Of a stretch of 64,000 nucleotides of DNA, positions 5,974 to 16,788 are shown in pieces. Where the stretch lies: positions 1,376,001-1,440,000 of the forward strand of contig OZ242374.1 in the NCBI GenBank assembly GCA_965209055.1. Reading direction: 5' to 3'. Position 1 is the stretch's first letter. Each line of letters opens with the position of its first letter. A program made the translations under genes and the position numbers. The notes below the pieces were generated by a model. The model was not told the origin of the DNA. It saw nothing but the letters and a program-made list of their open reading frames with translations, and made no database searches. Source of the DNA: Acidobacteriota bacterium. GTDB taxonomy: Bacteria > Acidobacteriota > UBA6911 > RPQK01 > JAJDTT01.

Positions 5974-7407
5974 ATGAGCCGCGTCCGGGTCCGTTTCGCC
6001 CCCAGCCCAACCGGATACCTTCACCTCGGCGGCGCCAGGACCGCCCTCTTCAACTGGCTCCTGGCCAGAAAAGCGCAGGGAACCTTCATTTTGCGAGTTG
6101 AAGATACGGACGCCCGGCGTTCCAGCCAGGAAATGGCAGAAGGAATCATGGACGGGCTGCGCTGGCTGGGTCTGGACTGGGACCAGGGACCCTTCTACCA
6201 GTCGCAGCGGCGCGAGCTCTATCGGGAAGCGGCCGAAAGAACCTTTGCCGGCAATCATGCCTACGCCTGCTTCTGTCCTCCGGAGGAAATTCAGGCTCGC
6301 TCGGCCGAGTCCCGCTCGGCCGGCCGGATCTGGAGAGACCAGGGTTGCCGGAATCGAGCCTCGCACCTTGCCAGGTCGCGAGTCGAGGCGGGAGAAGCCC
6401 ACACCCTCCGCTTCCGGGTTCCGGCGGACCGCAGGATCGTCTTTCAGGACCAAGTCTACGGAAAGGTATCGCTCTTTACGGACAACGTCGAGGACTTCAC
6501 CCTTCTCCGGTCCGACGGAAGTCCCACCTACCACCTGAGCGTGGTGACCGACGATTGGGAGATGGGAATCTCCCACGTGATCCGGGGAGCGGACCATCTT
6601 TCCAACACTCCGAAGCAGATCCTGCTGCATGAGGCACTTGGCAACCAGGCGCCCGGCTATGCCCACCTTCCCCTGATTCTGGGTCCCGACAAGAAACGGC
6701 TGAGCAAGAGGAACGGGGCCGAGTCGGTGCTCGAGTATCGGGAACATGGATTCCTTCCCGGGGCTCTGTGCAATTATCTGGCGCTCCTCGGCTGGTCTCC
6801 GGGCGACGACCGCGAACTCTTTTCCGACGGCGAGCTGGTGAAGAGCTTCGATCTGGCCCGGGTCAACAAGGCCAACGCCGTCTTCGATCGGCGGAAGTTG
6901 GAGTGGATGAATTCCCGCTATCTGGCCGACTCGAACAGCCATGACCTGACCCGGCACCTGCAACCGTTCCTTGAACCCTCCGGAGACGGTCAGAATGACG
7001 GGCGCCTGCTTCCGGTCATCACCCTGCTCAAGAGCCGATTGAACCGGCTCTCGGACTTTCCCGAGATGGCGGTTCCTTTTCTGACCGACGAATTCGACTA
7101 TGAATCCAAGGCGGTGAGCCGCCACTTTTCCCTCGCTGACCCGGAGGAACGCTCCCGGCTCCGAAGATGGTTGGAGACCCTGGCCGCTGAATACGAGCAG
7201 CTCAAAGAGTTCAACCTGGAGACGGTGGAGGCGGTGCTCCGGGGAACGGCCAAGGACTCGGGCTTCAAGATCGGGGCCTTCTTCGGCGCCGTGCGGGTGG
7301 CGCTGACGGGAAGGACCGCGGCTCCGGGAATCTTCGATGTGATCGTGACATTGGGGCGGCAAAGAGTCGTCGAGCGCCTTAAAAGGTGTCTGAAACTCCT
7401 CCAATGA
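5974..7407 (+). CDS. gltX: Glutamate--tRNA ligase
   Basis: RFAPSPTGYLHLGG (HIGH), LRVEDTD, IRGADH and RLSKR (KMSKS), plus a C-terminal anticodon-binding domain. Confidence 0.96.
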   Translation: MSRVRVRFAPSPTGYLHLGGARTALFNWLLARKAQGTFILRVEDTDARRSSQEMAEGIMDGLRWLGLDWDQGPFYQSQRRELYREAAERTFAGNHAYACFCPPEEIQARSAESRSAGRIWRDQGCRNRASHLARSRVEAGEAHTLRFRVPADRRIVFQDQVYGKVSLFTDNVEDFTLLRSDGSPTYHLSVVTDDWEMGISHVIRGADHLSNTPKQILLHEALGNQAPGYAHLPLILGPDKKRLSKRNGAESVLEYREHGFLPGALCNYLALLGWSPGDDRELFSDGELVKSFDLARVNKANAVFDRRKLEWMNSRYLADSNSHDLTRHLQPFLEPSGDGQNDGRLLPVITLLKSRLNRLSDFPEMAVPFLTDEFDYESKAVSRHFSLADPEERSRLRRWLETLAAEYEQLKEFNLETVEAVLRGTAKDSGFKIGAFFGAVRVALTGRTAAPGIFDVIVTLGRQRVVERLKRCLKLLQ

Positions 7408-8195
7408 GGCCCGTCGTCCTCTCCGTCATCATCCCCGCATACAACGAGGAGAACCGGCTGGGAGCCAGTCTCGGGAGAATCATCTCCTACCTGGAGGACC
7501 GCCGCCGTCCCTTCGAACTTCTGGTCGTAGACGACGGCTCGTCCGATAAAACGGTGCGGACCGCCATTTCGGCGGTGCGGGACCGTGGGAGCGAAGAGTG
7601 TCTCCGGATCCTGCAGAACGGGACCAACCGGGGCAAGGGCTACAGTGTCCGCCGCGGAATGCTCGCCGCCCGCGGGACGCACGCCCTCCTCACCGACGCG
7701 GATCTGAGCACTCCCATCGAGGAGGTCGCCAAGCTGGAACGGGAGATGACCCGCGGCAACCATCAGATCGCGTTTGGGTCGAGGGGCCTGACGGACTCCC
7801 GGATCCGGAAGCGCCAGAGCATATTCCGGGAAACGGCCGGAAAGATTTTCAACTTGGCCATGAGACTCTTGACGGGATTGCCGTACTGCGACACCCAGTG
7901 CGGATTCAAGCTGTTCGAATTGGAATCATGCCGCGTCCTGTTCCGGAAGCAGCGGCTGACGAGCTATGCCTTCGACGTGGAAATCCTTTATCTTGCCCGC
8001 AAGGCCGAGCTGGCGGCTCGAGAGGTCGGGGTCATCTGGCGACACCACTCCGACAGCAGGATCCGCCTCCTCAGAGACGGCGCCGGACTCCTGCAGGGTC
8101 TGGTCTCCATCCGTTGGAACGATCTGCTCGGCCGCTACGACCGGGATGAACGAGACCAGAATCGACGAACGACAACCGAGGGGAGCGACTCATGA
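7404..8195 (+). CDS. Glycosyltransferase family 2 (polyprenyl-phosphate glycosyltransferase-like)
   Basis: [34 protein letters not shown] and FDVEIL. ATGA overlap with the gltX stop. Confidence 0.9.
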
Positions 8196-8926
8196 CCAGA
8201 CTGGGTGTGAATGTGGACCACGTGGCCACGGTTCGGCAGGCTCGCCGGGCCCCCGAACCGGATCCGGTGACGGCGGCGCTGCTGGCCGAGTTGGCGGGCG
8301 CCGACGGCATCACCGTACACTTGCGCGGAGACCGGCGCCATATTCGAGAGCGGGACGTGCGGTTGCTGCGGGAGGTCGTCACCACCCGGCTCAACCTGGA
8401 AATGGCCGTCACCGAAGAGATGATGGAGATCGCGGGCCGGCTCCGCCCCAATACCGCCACCCTGGTGCCCGAAACCGATGAAGAGGTCACCACCGAGGGC
8501 GGACTGGATGTGATGGCGCGTCCCCAATCGGTCCGTTCCGCGATCCGAACCCTGGAAGGAGCCGGGATGGAGGTTTCCCTGTTCATCGATCCCGACCTGG
8601 ATCAGTTGGATGCCGCCTCCCGGATCGGCGCAGGCCTGGTGGAACTCAACACGGCAGCCTATGCCGAGGCCGTGCCCAAGGGATTGTCGGAGCATGAACC
8701 GGGCTACCGGCGGGAATTGGACAAGATGGTCGAAGCCTCGGAATTTGCCGCGGCCCGGGGCATTCGGGTCCTGGCCGGTCACGGCCTGACCTATCGAAAC
8801 GTCCGGCCCATATCGCGAATCCCACAGGTCGAAGAACTCAACATCGGACACAACATCGTGGCGCGAGCCACTCTGGTGGGCATGGAGCGCGCCGTCAGAG
8901 AGATGCTCGGCGCCATGAACGCATGA
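8192..8926 (+). CDS. pdxJ: Pyridoxine 5'-phosphate synthase
   Basis: [39 protein letters not shown] and ELNIGH. Confidence 0.97.
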
Positions 8927-9825
8927 ATTCCGAGAGAGGTCTTCTCCCGCCTGAAAACGCCTCGCCTGGAACTCTGCATGTACTGGCCACGCCATTGGGC
9001 CACCTGGGGGATCTGAGCCCGCGGGCGCGCGAAATCCTCGCGTCCGTCGATCTCATCGCCTGCGAAGACACCCGGCATTCGGGAAGGCTGCTCGCCGGTT
9101 TCGCCATCCGGACTCCCACCGTCAGCTACCACGAACACAACGAAACGTCTCAGGCCCGGACCCTGTTGGACCGCCTCCGGCGGGGCCGGAACATCGCCCT
9201 GATCAGCAATGCCGGCACACCCCTGGTTTCGGACCCCGGTTACCGCCTGGTCAAGCTCTGCCGGAAGAACTCGATTCCGGTCTCACCGGTTCCCGGTCCC
9301 TCGGCCGCCATCGCCGCTCTGTCGGTTTCCGGCCTTCCCACCGATCGATTTCTGTTTGCCGGTTTCCTTCCCAGGCAATCCGGATCCATGCGGCGCGAGC
9401 TGAAGGCGCTGAAGGATTTGAAGGCAACGCTGATTCTCTATGTGGCGCCGCACCGGCTGGCCGCCACCCTGGAGATGGCCCGGGAGGTCCTGGGCGATCG
9501 TCACGCCTGCCTGGCCAGGGAGATGACCAAGATCCACGAAAGCTTCACCCTGGGAACCCTGAGCGAGATACCCTCCCGGGCCGGCACCCGGCCGAAAGGG
9601 GAGTGCACGCTGGTCATCGAAGGGGCGGCATCCCAGCCGTCAGCAGCTCCCAACCTGGACCTGGAAGCCTACGTGGAAGGACTGATGCAGGTTCGGGATC
9701 TGACTCGCAGTCAGGCCGTACGATCCGCCGCGCGCGCCTTGGGGCTCCGCCGCCGCGAGGTCTACCGCCGCTGCCTCGAAGCTGAAGAGCTGTCCGGGCG
9801 CCGTGCGGAATCCGATCAAATCTGA
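8923..9825 (+). CDS. rsmI: 16S rRNA (cytidine1402-2'-O)-methyltransferase
   Basis: [37 protein letters not shown] and REMTKIHE. Confidence 0.94.
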
Positions 9826-9909
9826 GGAAATATGCAGAATATCTGCAATTCGGTCGGAATATTCTCACTCAACTTGACTGAGCACCATTATTTTCTGTAT
9901 AAATATGAA
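9823..9909 (+). promoter_or_regulatory. Sigma70-type promoter with ARG-box-like (ArgR/AhrC) sites upstream of the arg operon
   Basis: AT-rich patch with -35 TTGACT (9874-9879), an 18-nt spacer and -10 TATAAA (9898-9903). ARG-box-like TGTATAAATATGAA (9896-9909) overlaps the -10, and TGAGGAAATATGCA (9823-9836) is a weaker match to the consensus TGMATWWWWATKCA. Confidence 0.6.
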
Positions 9910-9941
9910 TTCTTGCCCCTGAGCGGGACGGGTGACAGAGC

Positions 9942-11027
9942 ATGAGCGACTTCAAGCACGCCGCGAGTCTAGGGACGCCCGGACAGACCAGGGTCGACGC
10001 CATCTCCTCGGTGGTTTCCCGCCTCAAGCTTCCCCGGACCCTCCGGCTGGGACAACCGGACCAGGTTGACTACGGCCAAGTCGTGGCGGCCCGCGTCCGG
10101 AGCGTGAATCTTTCCTATCCCGTGTTGGAGACCACCGGCAGCCGGAGTGTCCGCCTCCGGGAGGGCATGCGAATCGTCGGCGCGCTGGGCGCCCGCCGGG
10201 CACTCCACGGGTTCTCGGGACGTTTGCCGGAGCGGCTCGTCCCGGGAGCGGGCTTCCACCTTCTGAACAAAGGGGGCGTGATGGGCGAATGCACCGCCTT
10301 TCATCGCGCCCTGGGATGGCCGGCGGCACTCGAGTATCTGGGGACCGTACGCCGGAACGGAGGGTACCTGAGTCTTCGGGACGGCGCTCTTCCCTCGCTA
10401 TCCCATTCCCTTCCCCGAATTCCCGTGATCCTGGTGCTGGGAACCAGCATGAACTCGGGGAAGACCGCCGTCTGCAAGCAGATCCTCCGGCTTTTCTCCC
10501 AAAAAGGCTTCAACGTCAACGCGGGCAAAGTGGCCGGAGTGGCAGCGCGCGCCGACCTGGATGCGATGCGCAAGAGCGGGGCCGGGCGGGTCTTGAGCTT
10601 TCATGACCTGGGACTTCCCTCCAGCGCCCACTTGTCCGATCTCTCCACCGTCGCCCGGTCTCTGGTGCACCACTTGTCCTCCCCGGCGCCCGACTTCGCC
10701 CTCCTGGAAGCCGGCGACGGGATTCTGGGCGGTTATCGCGTCGATTCCCTGCTCCGTGACGATCAGTTGCTGGAACGAATCGTTTGCGTCGTCCTGTGCG
10801 CCAATGACCTGATGGGCGTCTGGGGATCCCTGGAGTGGTTGCGCCAGCAAGGTCACGACCCCCAGGGATTGTCGCTTCTGGTGTCCGGCCCCGCCACCGA
10901 CAGCGCCGAGGGAATCCGGTACGTCGAGCGGCATTTCCAGGTCCCTGCGGCCAATGCCTTCGAGAGTTCCGGAAAACTGTGCACCTTCATCCTGGAACGG
11001 TTGATACCATGGTCAAGATCGGCATAG
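9942..11027 (+). CDS. Uncharacterised P-loop (DUF1611-like) protein, first gene of the arg operon
   Basis: 361 aa with P-loop-like GTSMNSGKT, GKVAGV and LLEAGDG. It overlaps the argC start by 19 nt. The family assignment rests on motif resemblance only. Confidence 0.75.
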   Translation: MSDFKHAASLGTPGQTRVDAISSVVSRLKLPRTLRLGQPDQVDYGQVVAARVRSVNLSYPVLETTGSRSVRLREGMRIVGALGARRALHGFSGRLPERLVPGAGFHLLNKGGVMGECTAFHRALGWPAALEYLGTVRRNGGYLSLRDGALPSLSHSLPRIPVILVLGTSMNSGKTAVCKQILRLFSQKGFNVNAGKVAGVAARADLDAMRKSGAGRVLSFHDLGLPSSAHLSDLSTVARSLVHHLSSPAPDFALLEAGDGILGGYRVDSLLRDDQLLERIVCVVLCANDLMGVWGSLEWLRQQGHDPQGLSLLVSGPATDSAEGIRYVERHFQVPAANAFESSGKLCTFILERLIPWSRSA

Positions 11028-12019
11028 CCGGCGGGTCGGGATACAGCGGCGGGGAACTGATCCGCAATCTGGCCAAACATCCCCAGGCACAGTTGCGCTG
11101 GATCTCCTCCCGGCAGTTTACCGGCCAACCCGTGGCCTCCCTCTATCCCAACCTGCGGGGATTCGTGGATTGCCGTTTCGACAGTCTGGATTCTCTTCCG
11201 GACACGGATCTGGACGTCCTTTTCCTGGCGTTGCCCCACGGCCATGCCATGAAGATCCTGCCGCGGCTTCCCCGCGACCTGGTCGTCATCGACCTGAGCG
11301 GGGATTTTCGCATTTCCGATGCCGCCGTCTTCGAGCAGCACTACGGAATTCCCCAGGAGGCGCCGCAACATCAGTCATCGTTCGTCTATGGACTTCCCGA
11401 GATTCTTCGGGACCGGATCCGCCGGAGCTCGCGGGTCGCCAATCCAGGCTGCTTCGCCACCGCAACCATTCTTGCCCTCCACCCCCTATACCGGGAGGGG
11501 TGGGTCAAGGGACCCGTTTTCGTTGACACCAAGACCGGATCTTCCGGGGCCGGGCGGGGACCCGGCGCCAAGACCCACCACCCCCGGCGGAGCAACAGCT
11601 TCTTTCCCTACAAGCCGTTTCGCCACCAGCACGTGGCCGAAATCTCGCAGCTCCTGGACACCGCCGCCCATCCGCTGGTCTTCCAGACCTATTCCACACC
11701 CCTGGTCCGGGGCATTTTTGCCAGCCACTACATGGAATTGGACCGGCCGCTGCGGGATGACGAGGTCCGGGACCTCTACTCCGGCTACTACGGAGATGAG
11801 TTCTTCGTTCGATGGGCCGGGAAAGATCCGGATATCAACTTCGTCCGCAACGGGAACTTCGTGGATCTGGGGGCCGCCCACGACGACCGGTTCCTCATTG
11901 TCTGGTCGACGCTGGACAATCTTCAAAAAGGGGCCGCCGGCCAGGCCATTCAGAATATGAACCTGATCTGCGGCCTCCCGGAAACCATGGGACTCGATTT
12001 CCCTCCGTCGCACCCGTGA
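11009..12019 (+). CDS. argC: N-acetyl-gamma-glutamyl-phosphate reductase
   Basis: GGSGYSGGEL, FLALPHG, IDLSGDFR, YGLPE, VANPGCFAT (catalytic Cys) and DNLQKGAAGQAIQNMN. Confidence 0.93.
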   Translation: MVKIGIAGGSGYSGGELIRNLAKHPQAQLRWISSRQFTGQPVASLYPNLRGFVDCRFDSLDSLPDTDLDVLFLALPHGHAMKILPRLPRDLVVIDLSGDFRISDAAVFEQHYGIPQEAPQHQSSFVYGLPEILRDRIRRSSRVANPGCFATATILALHPLYREGWVKGPVFVDTKTGSSGAGRGPGAKTHHPRRSNSFFPYKPFRHQHVAEISQLLDTAAHPLVFQTYSTPLVRGIFASHYMELDRPLRDDEVRDLYSGYYGDEFFVRWAGKDPDINFVRNGNFVDLGAAHDDRFLIVWSTLDNLQKGAAGQAIQNMNLICGLPETMGLDFPPSHP

Positions 12020-12045
12020 CGGACCCCACTCGACAGGGAGAGAAA

Positions 12046-13215
12046 ATGGGAGAAACTGCCAACACCGTCATGGAAACGGAGGACCGTTACCAGCTCAAGA
12101 CCTACGCCAAACTACCGTTGGTGCTGGACCGGGGCCGAGGCTGCCATGTCTATGACCAGGACGGAAACGAATACCTGGACCTGTACGGCGGTCACGCCGT
12201 GGTCTCGACCGGCCACTGCCACCCGCGGGTGGTGGAAGCCCTGCGCACTCAGGCCGAGGACATTCTCTTCTATTCCAACGTGGTCTACAGTTCCGTGCGG
12301 GCTCGGGCGGCAAAGAAGTTGATGGAACTGGCGGGACCGCCCTACTGGCAGGCGTTCCTGGCCAATTCGGGCAGCGAGGCCAACGAGAACGCCATCAAGT
12401 TGGCGCGCGCCCTGACCGGCCGGGCCACGGTGATCTCCCTGTCCGACTCCTTTCACGGACGCACCTACGGGAGTCTTTCCAGCACCGGCGTTTCCAATTA
12501 TGCAGCGTATCTGAACACACCCGTCCCCGGTCATCGAATTCTGGATCTCCAGGATGTCGCCGATTCGGTCGATTCGGATACGGCGGCCGTCCTGCTGGAG
12601 CCGATCCGGAGCATGGGGGGAGTGGAGGAAGTCCCGGAGGAGACTCTCCGTGAGATCCACGACGCCTGCCGGACGCATGGGGCCTTCCTCATTTTCGACG
12701 AGGTTCAGACCGGAGTCGGGCGAACCGGCAGCTTCCTTTACGCCGGCACCGGCGGAATCTACCCCGAGATGGTCACCCTGGCCAAGGGGATCGCGTCGGG
12801 CGTTCCCGCCAGTGCGCTTCTGGTGACCCGCGAGGTGGCGGATCAGGTGCGGTCCGGAGACATGGGAGCGACCTTCGGCGGAGCTCCCGTCGCCTGCGCC
12901 GCCATGGAAGCCACGCTTCAGGTTCTGGAAGAGGAAGACCTCATCCGGAATGCGGCCCGGATCGGCAACTATCTGCGGGAGCAGTTGGAAGGCTTGCCCT
13001 GGGTCACGGAGGTCCGGGGGAAAGGGCTCCTGCTCGGCATCAAGATATCCGGGGGCACGGCCAAGGATCTGGGACGATTCCTGCGGACCCGGAGGATCCT
13101 GACCGGAACCTCCAGCGATCCGTCGGTGCTCCGTCTCATGCCGCCGCTCACTCTTGCACGCGAACAGGCCGACACTTTCCTGGAGGCGATCCGCAGTTAT
13201 GAACCTGGTCATTAA
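12046..13215 (+). CDS. argD: Acetylornithine aminotransferase (class III)
   Basis: NSGSEANENAIK, SFHGRT, FDEVQTGVGRTG and TLAKG. Lies between argC and argB. Confidence 0.9.
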   Translation: MGETANTVMETEDRYQLKTYAKLPLVLDRGRGCHVYDQDGNEYLDLYGGHAVVSTGHCHPRVVEALRTQAEDILFYSNVVYSSVRARAAKKLMELAGPPYWQAFLANSGSEANENAIKLARALTGRATVISLSDSFHGRTYGSLSSTGVSNYAAYLNTPVPGHRILDLQDVADSVDSDTAAVLLEPIRSMGGVEEVPEETLREIHDACRTHGAFLIFDEVQTGVGRTGSFLYAGTGGIYPEMVTLAKGIASGVPASALLVTREVADQVRSGDMGATFGGAPVACAAMEATLQVLEEEDLIRNAARIGNYLREQLEGLPWVTEVRGKGLLLGIKISGGTAKDLGRFLRTRRILTGTSSDPSVLRLMPPLTLAREQADTFLEAIRSYEPGH

Positions 13216-14014
13216 GCTGAGCGGCAAGGTCCTGGAACAGGAGGACTTCCGCCGGGCTCTCAGCCGCCAGATCACGTCCCTGGTTCGCGCGCCTCACCGG
13301 GTCCTTTTGATCCACGGAGGCGGCAAGCAGCTCTCCAGCCTCTGCGAACGGCTGGGGATTCCGGTGGTGCAGCACGAGGGCCGCCGGGTGACCGACGAAC
13401 CGACGTTGGACGCGGCCAAGATGGTCTTCTCGGCCGCCAACCGGGACCTGGTCGCGTCGTTGAATTCCTGCGGCGCCAGAGCCCTCGGCTTTGCCAGCTT
13501 CGATGCCGGACTGGTCCGCTGCCGCCGCCGGGGACCGATCCCGGTGCGGACGGCCGGGAGCAACGGTGCCGAGAAACGGCTTGTGGATTTCGGTCTCGTG
13601 GGAGAGATCGAGAGTGTGGACCCTCGCCTGATAAAAGATCTCTGGACAGCGAATCTGCTCCCGGTGGTGAGCTGTCTGTGCGCAACCGGTGACGGCCGGA
13701 TTCTCAATATCAACGCCGACACCCTGGCGGCGCGACTCGCCACGGCGTTGCGGGCCGACCGCCTCGTGTCGGTGACCGACGTGGAAGGTCTCTATCTGGA
13801 TGACTTTCGCGAGACCGTTCCCCGGCTGACCGCGGGGGAGGTCCGAATGCACCTGCGGTCCGGCGCCATCAGCGGCGGAATGATCCCCAAGATGCAGACG
13901 GCCTTGAAGGCACTGGAGCAGCAGATTCCCATGGTGCAGATCGTGGGCGGATTGTCGCCCAACGGGCTGATCCGGGGAATCGAGGGGGCGGCAGGAACCA
14001 GCATCGTCCCCTGA
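13199..14014 (+). CDS. argB: Acetylglutamate kinase
   Basis: VIKLSG, IHGGGK, GRRVTD, NINADT, TDVEG and GGMIPK. No fused GNAT domain. Confidence 0.93.
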   Translation: MNLVIKLSGKVLEQEDFRRALSRQITSLVRAPHRVLLIHGGGKQLSSLCERLGIPVVQHEGRRVTDEPTLDAAKMVFSAANRDLVASLNSCGARALGFASFDAGLVRCRRRGPIPVRTAGSNGAEKRLVDFGLVGEIESVDPRLIKDLWTANLLPVVSCLCATGDGRILNINADTLAARLATALRADRLVSVTDVEGLYLDDFRETVPRLTAGEVRMHLRSGAISGGMIPKMQTALKALEQQIPMVQIVGGLSPNGLIRGIEGAAGTSIVP

Positions 14015-14042
14015 CGATATGCCGGCTCCGGACAGGTCCAGG

Positions 14043-15542
14043 TCAGGCGCCCAGAGCCAGAGAGGGCCTCACCAAACCCAACTCCTGCTCCAAAACGTGC
14101 GCCACCCTCAGTAGCCGGCCTTCCTTGAAGTGGGGGCCCAGCAACTGCAGTCCGATGGGCACTCCCTCAGCCGTGTAGCCGCAAGTTGTGGCCACTCCGG
14201 GAATGCCCGCCAGGTTGGCAGTGACCGTATACACATCCGACAAGTACATCTCCAAGGGATCGGCGGTCTTGTCGCCCTGCGGAAAGGGCAGCGACGGGGC
14301 GGTGGGACCCATCAGGACGTCCGCCCGCTCGAATGCTCTGAAGTAGTCCTCCTTGATCAGGGTTCGGACCTTGCTGGCCTTGAGGTAGTACGCATCGTAG
14401 TACCCGGCGCTCAAGACATAGGTCCCGATCATGATCCGCCGCTTGACTTCGTCTCCGAATCCTTCGTTGCGGCTGTTCCGGTAGGTTTCCTCCAGGGCCC
14501 CGGACCTGCTGCTCCGATGGCCGTATCGCATTCCGTCGTAGCGAGCCAGATTCGAGCTGGCCTCGGCCAGTGCGATGATGTAGTAGGTGGCAATCGCGAA
14601 CTCCGTATGGGGCAGATCGACCTCCACGACCTCGCATCCGGCCGCCTCCAGCCTGGCTGCCGCGCGCCGGACCGCGGTTTCGATCCGCGGGTCCAGACCG
14701 GAAGCGAACCACTCCACCGGAAGACCGATCCTCAGGCCCCGGATGTCCCCGTCCAGGGCCGCTACGTAATCGTCCGGCGGCCGCCGTGCGGAGGTCGAGT
14801 CCAATGGATCGTAGCCGGATACGACCTGCAGAATCATGGCCGCGTCACGTGCGGTGCGGGCCAGCGGTCCAATCTGGTCCAGTGAGGAGGCAAAGGCCAC
14901 CAGCCCGTAGCGGGAAACCCTTCCGTAGGTCGGTTTCAAACCGACGACGCCACAGAAGGCGGCAGGCTGGCGAATCGAGCCGCCGGTGTCGCTTCCCAGG
15001 GCGCCCGGCGCCTCGAGCGCAGCCACCGCCGCGGCCGATCCTCCGCTTGACCCGCCGGGAACCCGGTTGAGGTCCCAGGGATTGCGGGTGGGGAAGAAAC
15101 CCGAGTTCTCGGTGGTGGAACCCATGGCGAACTCGTCCAGGTTGGTCTTTCCCAGAATCAGCCCTCCGCCGGCCCGGAGACGGGCGACCGATGTGGCTTC
15201 GTAGGGGGGAACGTAACGCTCCAGAATCCGGGACCCGCAGGTCGTCCGCATTCCCCGGGTGACGATATTGTCCTTCACGGCCAAGGGAATCCCGGTCAAC
15301 AGGCCGACCTCCCGTTCTCCCGAAGCCAGAGCTTGATCCAGCGCCCGGGCCTCTTCCAGCAGAGTCTCCGCAGCCAGGCTGAGGAAGGCCTGGACCTTGG
15401 GATCGCGGGACCGGATCCGCCGCAGGTAGGCCTCGGCGATTTCCAACGACGAGATCTGCCGGTTCCTGATTCCCCGGTGCAGTTGGGCAATGGACAGATC
15501 GCAGATTTCGGACGACGGCCGGGGCGACTCGTATTCCATCAC
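14043..15542 (-). CDS. gatA: Asp/Glu-tRNA amidotransferase subunit A
   Basis: Amidase signature GKTNLDEFAMGS, PGGSSGGSAAAVA, GSDTGGSIRQPA and EVKRRIMIGT. Confidence 0.97.
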   Translation of the reverse strand: MMEYESPRPSSEICDLSIAQLHRGIRNRQISSLEIAEAYLRRIRSRDPKVQAFLSLAAETLLEEARALDQALASGEREVGLLTGIPLAVKDNIVTRGMRTTCGSRILERYVPPYEATSVARLRAGGGLILGKTNLDEFAMGSTTENSGFFPTRNPWDLNRVPGGSSGGSAAAVAALEAPGALGSDTGGSIRQPAAFCGVVGLKPTYGRVSRYGLVAFASSLDQIGPLARTARDAAMILQVVSGYDPLDSTSARRPPDDYVAALDGDIRGLRIGLPVEWFASGLDPRIETAVRRAAARLEAAGCEVVEVDLPHTEFAIATYYIIALAEASSNLARYDGMRYGHRSSRSGALEETYRNSRNEGFGDEVKRRIMIGTYVLSAGYYDAYYLKASKVRTLIKEDYFRAFERADVLMGPTAPSLPFPQGDKTADPLEMYLSDVYTVTANLAGIPGVATTCGYTAEGVPIGLQLLGPHFKEGRLLRVAHVLEQELGLVRPSLALGA

Positions 15543-15835
15543 TCGATGACCCTGGGCACCCGGAAGTACCCCTTTCGGGCCTTGGGCGCCCCCTCAAGGA
15601 CGGCCTCCGGCGCCAGAGAGGGCCGGGTCCGGTCGGGACGAACGGCACCCTCGTCCGGGATCTCCGCCAAGCCGTGGTAGGTCGGCTCCACACCTTCCGT
15701 GTCCACCTGCTGGAGTTGTTCGAAATAGTCCAGAATCCGTTGAAATTGGCCGACGAACCGTTCCAGCTCACCGGGCGAGAACTCGAGATGGGCCAATTCG
15801 GCGATTCTTCGGACCTCTTTGGGAGTAATGCTCAT
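15539..15835 (-). CDS. gatC: Asp/Glu-tRNA amidotransferase subunit C
   Basis: 98 aa with IAELAHLE...VDTEGVEPT...YFRVPRVIE, overlapping the gatA start. Confidence 0.94.
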   Translation of the reverse strand: MSITPKEVRRIAELAHLEFSPGELERFVGQFQRILDYFEQLQQVDTEGVEPTYHGLAEIPDEGAVRPDRTRPSLAPEAVLEGAPKARKGYFRVPRVIE

Positions 15836-16788
15836 GGGACCCTCTTGTCGAGAACCGAATCCGACTTCATTCCGTACTTGCGGGCCAGCCGCACATCCGA
15901 TCCAAGTTGCCGTTTCAAGGCATCGAGATTGGAGAACCGCCTTTCCGAACGCAGCCTGAACCAGAAATCGAGCGCCATGGACTCTCCATAGAGGTCGCAG
16001 TCCGCATCCAGCAAGTAGGTCTCGACCACCGGCCTGGCCGCGGGTTCGCCCAATGTGGGCCGGTAGCCGACGTTTGTAGCGCCGACAAAAACAGCGCCGT
16101 TGACCGTCGCTCGAGTCACATAGACCCCGGTTGCCGGTATGAGTTCGCTGGCGGGCTGAAGGTTCGCTGTCGGGAAACCCAGGTCGGCGCCTCTGCCCGA
16201 TCCCCTCACCACCGTTCCCAGAATCTGATAGGGCCGGTTCAGGAGGCGCCGGCAGAGCGCCACCCTCCCTTGGCCCAAGTGCTTGCGGACGACCGTGCTG
16301 CTGACACGCCGCCCCCGGAAACGAACCGAATCGATGGCAAAGACATGGAACCCGAACTTCCGCCCCAGGGATTCCAGGGTCTTGAAATCGCCTGTTCTCC
16401 CGTACCCGAAACGAAAGTTGCTCCCCACGTGGATCTCCTTGACGCCACGGGAACCCAGGACGTCCCTGACGAAACGCTCCGGACTGAATCGGGAGACCTG
16501 CCGGCTGAAGGGGTACCGAACCAGGATGTCCAAACCCAACTCTTCGAGGAGCCGATGCTTCTGCACCGGCAACTGCAGGAGGGAAGGCGCATCCGCGGGT
16601 GAAATGATCTTCTGGGGATGAGGGGAGAAGGTGAGGAGGATCCCGGTCCCGTTTACTTCCCGAGCCCGCTGAACCACCCGTCTGACAATCGCCTGGTGCC
16701 CCAGGTGGAGTCCGTCGAAAACTCCTATCGTGGCCACCGGATAGGGCAACCCGGGAGGAAGTTTGTTCAGGTCGTCAATGATCTGCAT
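15832..16788 (-). CDS. ribF: Bifunctional riboflavin kinase/FAD synthetase
   Basis: TIGVFDGLHLGHQ, VGSNFRFG, VSST and LGFPTAN. Confidence 0.96.
   Translation of the reverse strand: MQIIDDLNKLPPGLPYPVATIGVFDGLHLGHQAIVRRVVQRAREVNGTGILLTFSPHPQKIISPADAPSLLQLPVQKHRLLEELGLDILVRYPFSRQVSRFSPERFVRDVLGSRGVKEIHVGSNFRFGYGRTGDFKTLESLGRKFGFHVFAIDSVRFRGRRVSSTVVRKHLGQGRVALCRRLLNRPYQILGTVVRGSGRGADLGFPTANLQPASELIPATGVYVTRATVNGAVFVGATNVGYRPTLGEPAARPVVETYLLDADCDLYGESMALDFWFRLRSERRFSNLDALKRQLGSDVRLARKYGMKSDSVLDKRVP

Follow-up and report, generated by a model that had tools for sequence, protein, structure and literature searches.

We propose that X, a 361-amino-acid (aa) open reading frame (ORF) heading an arginine operon in an Acidobacteriota bacterium, encodes an N-acylglutamate synthase. 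The operon lies on contig OZ242374.1 of assembly GCA_965209055.1, in a 64,000-nucleotide (nt) stretch (positions 1,376,001 to 1,440,000), called the window, in whose coordinates features are given unless stated otherwise; X is our name for the ORF at 9942-11027 on the forward strand. We put the probability that X makes N-acylglutamate, by whatever mechanism, at roughly 0.75, and regard as about a toss-up the narrower proposal that it uses an acyl-CoA donor, the default by analogy with the glutamate N-acetyltransferase DgcN. In this organism X would open arginine synthesis by N-acylating L-glutamate, the first committed step, replacing both ArgA and ArgJ, and the resulting N-acylglutamate would be phosphorylated by ArgB, in a linear pathway predicted to run through X, ArgB, ArgC, ArgD, an ArgE-like hydrolase and a canonical ornithine carbamoyltransferase (OTC). 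Gene linkage, co-regulation signals, phyletic complementarity and the fold are observed; we infer the reaction itself, because both the gene neighbourhood of X and its distribution, complementary to those of ArgJ and ArgA, argue for X as the supplier of N-acylglutamate. That X supplies the substrate of ArgB was also the core proposal of an earlier annotation of the same DNA, hereafter the sequence-only reading, and the neighbourhoods and complementarity described below support it well.

The operon has the gene order X-argC-argD-argB, all on the forward strand. X opens with an ATG and encodes a two-domain protein, the predicted N-acyl-L-glutamate synthase, and its 3' end overlaps by 19 nt with argC (11009-12019), an N-acetyl-gamma-glutamyl-phosphate reductase gene (TIGR01850, 350.3 bits for a cut-off of 233.6; Pfam Semialdhyde_dh and Semialdhyde_dhC_1). 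The argD gene (12043-13215) encodes a class-III aminotransferase of the acetylornithine/succinylornithine type (Aminotran_3, E 1.4e-95), whose top NCBIfam matches, both acetylornithine transaminases, fall under the curated cut-offs (NF002874, 355.3 against 457; TIGR00707, 343.5 against 410). It overlaps by 17 nt with argB (13199-14014), which encodes a short-type N-acylglutamate kinase of 271 aa (TIGR00761, 185.6 bits against 151.3). AA_kinase is the sole Pfam domain of ArgB, in which Pfam and NCBIfam scans detected no fused GNAT domain, and no argA, argJ or GNAT gene is found within the operon. The sequence-only reading had described the operon in these terms, with X promoter-proximal and overlapping argC, with steps for ArgB, ArgC and ArgD encoded and with argA, argJ and GNAT functions lacking, and each element of that description holds.

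The genome is a single closed contig of 6,077,182 bp (completeness 98.4). ArgJ has no match anywhere in it, and the sole match to the ArgA model TIGR01890 is ArgB itself. A second arg cluster, argR-argG-argH-argF, is found at genome positions 5,330,174-5,334,287, where argF encodes a canonical OTC (TIGR00658, 332.5 bits against 280.85), and two ArgE-like M20 proteins, encoded at genome positions 1,110,127-1,111,263 and 2,743,333-2,744,469, have acetylornithine deacetylase as their top family (237 and 226 bits, under its 297.7 cut-off). Since all other pathway steps have genes, glutamate N-acylation is the one step left without a candidate. A LysW/ArgX route was rejected, as the genome has no LysW and no RimK-family or ArgX-type ligase over cut-off. 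Eleven GNAT matches are scattered through the genome, none less than 480 kb from either arg cluster, and none of the eight strongest reaches a synthase cut-off (best, NF049894, 30 bits against 280). X itself carries no GNAT, ArgJ or ATP-grasp domain in Pfam and NCBIfam scans.

The distribution of X across the phylum is complementary to that of the known synthases. We surveyed 301 genomes, all at least 90% complete, and counted X as strong at E < 1e-90; ArgB was found in 182 genomes, strong X in 80, ArgJ in 89 and full-length ArgA in five. ArgB accompanies X in every one of the 80, and ArgJ, as well as ArgA over cut-off, is absent from them all; none of the ArgB-less genomes has strong X. Together, X, ArgJ and ArgA account for 167 of the 182 ArgB genomes, and X and ArgJ alternate within three taxonomic families (f9, f28 and f32). 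The anti-correlation with argA and argJ raised in the sequence-only reading is thus borne out. The tallies include the unpublished genomes G048 and G023 (X-bearers; G048 also among those without ArgF', see below, and G023 among those with both X and DUF1611) and G145 (weak X with ArgJ), and no claim rests solely on these three. Metabolic reconstructions from genomes repeatedly leave the start of arginine synthesis unfilled, and X would fill this gap in 80 of the 182 ArgB-bearing genomes of the sample, near the 87 for ArgJ. As a separate observation, 119 of the 301 genomes show no ArgB at E <= 1e-35, so that in much of the phylum the acylated arginine pathway is either missing or very divergent.

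Linkage to arginine genes is likewise a property of the family rather than of the window alone. X has 531 relatives in a word-indexed collection, 1075 cluster representatives at E <= 0.001 and 519 loci in species-representative genomes; among the 120 listed of the 531, every relative is unnamed or 'hypothetical' and lacks a Pfam domain. In a sample of 80 of the 519 loci, 70 of them with at least 1200 nt downstream, argC follows X directly on the same strand, starting within 640 nt, in 65 of 70, and arg genes lie next to X in 14 of 14 Pfam-annotated loci, with no GNAT linked to X in any of these 14. Three of the five exceptions were annotated (L019 and L037 were left out), and there X adjoins argH, argG or an M20 hydrolase gene (L036, L050 and L074, the M20 case being L036). 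The survey of neighbourhoods proposed in the sequence-only reading therefore finds the homologues arg-linked. The usual order in relatives is argR-argG-X-argC-argD-argF'-argB, where argF' encodes a protein scoring 370-470 bits on the N-acetylornithine carbamoyltransferase model (cut-off 288). An 867-aa open frame over X in G133 reflects a stop-free upstream stretch, and we rejected it as an argG-X fusion. A fusion of another kind is found in P0145, a 626-aa protein on four contigs, labelled 'acetylglutamate kinase' at its source, which joins an X-family domain (residues 7-310) to an ArgB/ArgA-like amino-acid-kinase domain (residues 363-597). The latter scores 127 bits on TIGR00761 (cut-off 151.3), matches positions 5-277 of the ArgA model and has KIAD in place of the K-x-G-G of ArgBs, so that it may serve regulation, in the manner of ArgA, and have no catalytic activity; X beside a kinase domain echoes the kinase-GNAT architecture of ArgA. 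A search for X fusions longer than 633 aa found none.

Although the sequence-only reading offered X as a candidate new synthase, the same role had already been predicted for a protein with the same context and DgcN likeness. Price et al. (GapMind 2026, PMC13759103; bioRxiv Appendix 2) place the Steroidobacter denitrificans hypothetical protein ACG33_RS14135 (A0A127FCT3) within arg clusters, state that homologues of it occur 'virtually always' within arg operons and never alongside ArgA homologues, and report a weak Foldseek match to DgcN (PDB 7XRJ, E 1.4e-7, rmsd 5.6 Å), hence a 'very distant DgcN homolog'. Position 92 is A, P, S or V in 90% of 70 neighbouring ArgF' proteins, and their prediction, an alternative synthase of N-succinylglutamate, is marked as unconfirmed in their table (PMC13759103). 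X and A0A127FCT3 very probably belong to one family, judging from identical context and properties: X relatives are likewise clustered with argR, argG, argC, argD, argF' and argB, exclude ArgA and are remotely similar to DgcN 7XRJ. Our independent sample thereby reproduces arg linkage, ArgA exclusion, DgcN likeness and a residue other than Glu at ArgF' position 92. The clade of the window differs from the family as they describe it by its canonical OTC, short ArgB and lack of ArgF', and it is here that the present analysis adds to theirs.

To place the fold, we modelled X with AlphaFold2 from a 44-sequence alignment (predicted local distance difference test score 91.9, predicted template modelling score 0.88). 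The model predicts an all-beta N-terminal domain (about residues 20-138) and a SIMIBI-class alpha/beta P-loop C-terminal domain (about residues 157-360), the latter of the BioD/CTP-synthase/DUF1611 type; X is not a GNAT. The C-terminal domain bears the signature G167-x5-G173-K174-T175, K196, D205 and E256-x-G-D-G, of which G167, G173, K174, T175, E256, G258, D259 and G260 are invariant in the 44 homologues; the GTSMNSGKT and LLEAGDG motifs already picked out in the sequence-only reading fall in these conserved columns. No Pfam or NCBIfam family matches X over cut-off. Sub-cut-off matches at the level of the P-loop (residues 160-200) are to AAA_26 (PF13500, 14.7 bits against a cut-off of 27), DUF1611 (PF07755, 13.4 bits against 25, residues 160-193 only) and MobB (13.4 bits). 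The DgcN model NF041892 does not match X, but the true DUF1611 proteins found in relatives reach 138-156 bits with this model. Foldseek retrieves FtsY/Ffh, dethiobiotin synthetase, HypB and CTP synthase as the top PDB matches of the model (E 3.5e-6 to 4.6e-5).

In profile-profile comparison the X family matches DUF1611 with a probability of 91.0% (E 1.1e-6, 179 columns), up from 17.5% and 73.8% with earlier, shallower DUF1611 profiles, and DUF1611 matches BioD equally well over a shorter span (91.0%, E 1.1e-6, 84 columns). The P-loop domain of X is thereby homologous to DUF1611 over the whole domain length; the N-terminal domains of the two do not align in hhalign, and structural matches of the X model to the DUF1611 structures 2g0t and 2obn begin only at model residues 111-112. 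X is, by these sequence comparisons, not a DUF1611 protein, and its DgcN likeness holds at the superfamily level only. The DUF1611 resemblance claimed in the sequence-only reading accordingly stands for the C-terminal P-loop, which is related, but not for family membership, X being below the PF07755 cut-off, without a match to NF041892 and as close to BioD and CTP synthase; the HMM and Foldseek comparison that it proposed gave the same answer, a fold likeness to DUF1611/DgcN that is not specific. DgcN is in addition described as belonging to D-glutamate catabolism rather than to arg operons, and it differs from X in that X falls under the family cut-offs, has an unaligned all-beta N-terminal domain and carries an invariant lysine, K196, at a position that is a gap or Gly in DUF1611. 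BioD and the CTP synthase domain, which are ATP-dependent C-N ligases of the SIMIBI class, differ by the extra 150-residue beta domain of X and, for BioD, by context, which for X is arginine and not biotin; the genome has its own bioD elsewhere, at genome position 1,707,682. ArgA, ArgJ, the short GNAT synthases and ArgX/LysW are unrelated to X in sequence and fold, and X takes the same position in the pathway and, in relatives, the same operon slot. If its role is confirmed, X would be a way of making N-acylglutamate without a GNAT, on a fold that binds nucleotides.

Which donor such an enzyme would use depends on how its P-loop residues are read. Mapped onto BioD by profile alignment (E. coli numbering through 1a82), K174/T175 of X correspond to K15/T16, K196 to K37, G199 to G42, D205 to D54 and E256 to E115, and across 90 family members K174, K196, G199 and E256 are invariant and T175 and D205 at least 90% conserved. 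In BioD the residues at these positions hold the ATP phosphates and Mg2+, and BioD, CTP synthase and CobB/CobQ use this fold for ligation of the acyl-phosphate type; the LysW route, too, is started by an ATP-dependent enzyme, the ATP-grasp ArgX. X thus appears to keep the full BioD-type set of ATP/Mg residues, including the K37-equivalent lysine where DUF1611 has a gap or Gly, and an ATP-dependent carboxylate-amine ligase, which would couple free succinate or acetate with L-glutamate at its alpha-amino group by way of an acyl-phosphate and dispense with acyl-CoA, is a live alternative, to which we give about one chance in four. Slightly less probable again is the specific version in which X, with a BioD-type site, makes N-acetylglutamate from the free acid and serves as the feedback point of the linear pathway. 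Against a ligase, the P-loop Lys, an Asp and the Glu are found in DgcN too, which is nonetheless listed as acetyl-CoA dependent, so that retention of these residues is no proof of ATP use, and the alignments, at 12-17% identity, may be shifted by one residue. To our knowledge no glutamate N-acyltransferase with this fold other than DgcN has been characterised, and we know of no N-acylglutamate synthase that uses a free acid. DgcN (DUF1611; PDB 7XRJ; EC 2.3.1.312) is listed as a D-glutamate N-acetyltransferase dependent on acetyl-CoA, which is why an acyl-CoA donor is our default. The portions of Price et al. available to us make no mention of an ATP-dependent ligase. Were X such a ligase, it would be a third, mechanistically distinct start of arginine synthesis beside acyl transfer by GNAT enzymes or ArgJ and the ATP-grasp ArgX/LysW route.

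Several observations weigh against the synthase reading. The role is not confirmed biochemically or genetically for any member, according to the table of Price et al. (PMC13759103). The fold does not single out an N-acyltransferase: against the X model, the Z scores of BioD, CTP synthase, HypB and Ffh are within one unit of that of DUF1611, and the X family matches the BioD control profile nearly as well as DUF1611 (87.3%, E 3.8e-6, 163 columns). X and true DUF1611 proteins co-occur in four genomes (G120, G023, G085 and G097) and are therefore separate families. Related genomes are not independent, and the counts, not a Fisher p value, which overstates, serve as our evidence for complementarity. 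Fifteen of the 182 ArgB genomes have neither X nor ArgJ nor ArgA; one of these, G052, has a partial weak X match only, and in G104 and G174 the ArgF' matches begin about 2 kb from the contig start, so that the upstream part of the operon, where X would lie, may be unassembled. Clear cases are three 98%-complete genomes, G171, G277 and G293, which share a genus with six X-bearers, give no X, ArgJ or ArgA match genome-wide and have operons (L160, L161 and L162) of the order argR-argC-argD-argF'-argB, without X, argG or a GNAT gene; a further solution besides X must therefore exist. In G277 alone of the three, an extra 181-aa ORF without a Pfam family lies between argF' and argB (L161:1390-1935, minus strand). 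Finally, a generic GNAT elsewhere in the window genome may be the true synthase.

In a second alternative, X is a non-catalytic or regulatory partner of the early arg enzymes, for example a scaffold that depends on nucleotide or a sensor of arginine acting on ArgB or ArgC, and an unrecognised GNAT elsewhere makes the N-acylglutamate. SIMIBI P-loop accessory NTPases of the MobB, HypB, UreG and Ffh/FtsY type are among the best fold matches, a partner role would also suit the fusion of X to an amino-acid-kinase domain in P0145, 11 GNATs of unassigned role are encoded in the genome, and in the three relatives just described the operon lacks X. On the other hand, 0 of 80 X-bearers have ArgJ or ArgA and 80 of 80 have ArgB, an exclusion cleaner than would be expected of an accessory factor; no GNAT is linked to either arg cluster or, in the 14 annotated loci, to X; and K196 and D205, residues of the BioD-type substrate side, are conserved. 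We consider this explanation improbable, and even more so a third, that X removes or transfers an acyl group as a deacylase or as an acyl-ornithine/citrulline:glutamate transacylase: its anticorrelation with ArgJ, which does both jobs, the sub-cut-off scores of the ArgE-like M20 proteins and the absence of the expected ArgE from Steroidobacter as well (Price et al., bioRxiv Appendix 2) would fit, but the genome has two ArgE-like M20 genes, an M20 gene lies beside X in L036, and the synthase gap would stay unfilled. An N-acylglutamate synthase remains the reading that we favour. We know of no precedent for an amidohydrolase on the P-loop NTPase fold, which also counts against a deacylase.

For an N-acylglutamate synthase, the acyl group is a separate question from the donor. 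We located position 92 of ArgF' with the help of the PDB structures of the Xanthomonas enzyme that form a series of E92 mutants. All 53 linked ArgF' proteins covering this position carry a residue other than Glu (T in 42, A in 6, S in 4 and P in 1), which agrees with the succinyl argument of Price et al., with the qualification that the work cited by them did not include Thr among its tested residues. The linked ArgF' sequences thus suggest a succinylated product in most relatives. The window genome has no ArgF' (NF003384), and it is one of 16 X-bearers out of 80 in this condition, 15 of which belong to its order (families f1, f3, f4 and f6). Canonical OTC is found in 41 of 57 genomes of the order and in 12 of 13 of the window's family. 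The X clade of the window is at most 44% identical to ArgF'-linked members; in a quick tree (SH-aLRT support only, a careful search being unfinished) the window and L002-L006 form one branch with support 100, and no argF' is present in the loci of the window and L002-L006. Having canonical OTC and no ArgF', this clade falls outside the succinyl argument, which does not carry over to it. Its acyl group could be acetyl or succinyl, and the genome does not decide between them; the canonical OTC and the two ArgE-like M20 hydrolases together point to a linear pathway with deacylation at ornithine. Of the N-acetylglutamate synthase proposed in the sequence-only reading, the N-acylglutamate role survives, while the acetyl group and an acetyl-CoA donor are unproven and the ArgF' of relatives points to succinyl.

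The ArgB of this clade is also distinctive. In the alignment it does not have the N-terminal 'EALPYI' segment carried by ArgF'-linked ArgBs, a segment that we take to mark arginine-sensitive hexameric kinases, and the window ArgB matches the ArgA model from position 19 only, most others doing so from positions 2-5. In E. coli, arginine feedback acts on ArgA, and X, like E. coli ArgA, pairs here with a short ArgB. As ArgB is short and without the N-terminal helix, X would be the likeliest point of arginine feedback in this clade, provided that our assumption about the marker is right. What is specific to the window, then, is that the context of canonical OTC and short ArgB leaves the acyl group open and the BioD-like residues leave the donor open. 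Because its pathway is simple and linear, and so could be rebuilt in E. coli, the clade would be the most useful place to address both questions left by the published prediction.

Signals of co-regulation are found in the 116-nt leader of X, which holds conserved AT-rich elements. On the forward strand, GAAATATGCAGAATATCTGCAA (9827-9848), with the inverted repeat TGCAGA-ATA-TCTGCA, and CGGAATATTCTCAC (9855-9868) both lie 5' of the promoter and are candidate regulator sites; CGGAATATTCTCAC is intact in four of six same-genus genomes and has one or two changes in the other two, while its flanks drift. A sigma-70-like promoter can be read from the sequence at 9874-9903, with a -35 box TTGACT (9874-9879), an 18-nt spacer and a -10 box TATAAA (9898-9903), and TTGAC and TGTATAAWTAT are kept in eight of eight genomes of the genus and its sister genus, the spacer sequence being variable. 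An operator-like 20-mer, CTGTATAAATATGAATTCTT (9895-9914, forward strand), overlaps the -10 box and is common to the promoter of argR-argG-argH-argF, which in the same genome has identical -35 and -10 boxes and 17 of the 20 bases. Within it, the 17-mer TGTATAAATATGAATTC (9896-9912) likewise overlaps the -10 box, and its degenerate form TGTATAAAWWTGMATTC occurs in only two copies in the 6,077,182-bp genome, in the X leader and upstream of argR. With up to four mismatches the 20-mer has three matches genome-wide, the third of which (four mismatches; C1:3,831,407, minus strand, outside the window) is located just 5' of a 511-aa ORF. The operator-like motif is identical in six of six same-genus genomes, and its core is kept in eight of eight including the sister genus. 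The 20-mer would fit a repressor site common to the X and argR promoters, with ArgR as the probable regulator. The ARG-box-like sites of the sequence-only reading are thus partly borne out, by conserved AT-rich elements and a motif shared with argR, binding of ArgR to which remains a prediction.

Beyond the arginine-linked orthologues the family extends to more distant proteins. Weak-tier paralogues (E 1e-39 to 1e-51), left out of the orthologue counts, have contexts unrelated to arginine; among 14 weak-tier genomes, eight have no ArgB and five have ArgJ (three of these five within that E range), and from these contexts and this distribution the arginine role would be limited to the orthologous clade. 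At the paralogue loci L091 and L094 an NADPH-dependent FMN reductase gene and genes for cytochrome oxidase subunits I and III adjoin, at L090 a YheC/D-type ATP-grasp gene does, and one paralogue among these three loci exceeds the DUF1611 cut-off (31.5 bits). P0263 and P0267 are distant X-like P-loop proteins fused to an N-terminal response-regulator receiver domain, which suggests that some X paralogues are under phosphorylation control. P0292, a family member 34% identical to X, is labelled at its source as coming from an archaeal metagenome-assembled genome (Candidatus Ranarchaeia); the family may extend beyond bacteria, or the bin may be mixed. A language-model look-up of the homologue P0003 returned unnamed clusters and clusters with 11% of members carrying PF07755; one nearby cluster (score 0.98) consists of hypothetical proteins of 350 aa that are most frequent in Pseudomonadota, which we treat only as a lead on membership in the family of A0A127FCT3, and the same look-up with the N-terminal domain gave nothing above 0.87. 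In one Pyrinomonadaceae arg operon, argC and argD are separated by an inserted 126-aa ORF that carries a tRNA_bind domain (L026:10132-10512).

The surroundings of the operon are themselves conserved. On its 5' side lie gltX, a GT2 glycosyltransferase gene, pdxJ and a TP_methylase (RsmI-like) gene, and on its 3' side, on the opposite strand, gatA, gatC and ribF. These flanks (5974-9825 and 14043-16788) are syntenic with L002, L003 and L005, so that the arg operon sits in a conserved housekeeping block in the window's order. In a metatranscriptome run (X20), short contigs match parts of X, argC, argD and argB at 94-96% identity; they come from a relative, may originate from DNA carry-over and reveal no transcript structure. 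Runs labelled as sponge metagenomes, from several studies, contain the region 9800-14100 or near variants of it, and in one of them (run X5) two of the three contigs examined are at least 99% alike and jointly span all 30 bins.

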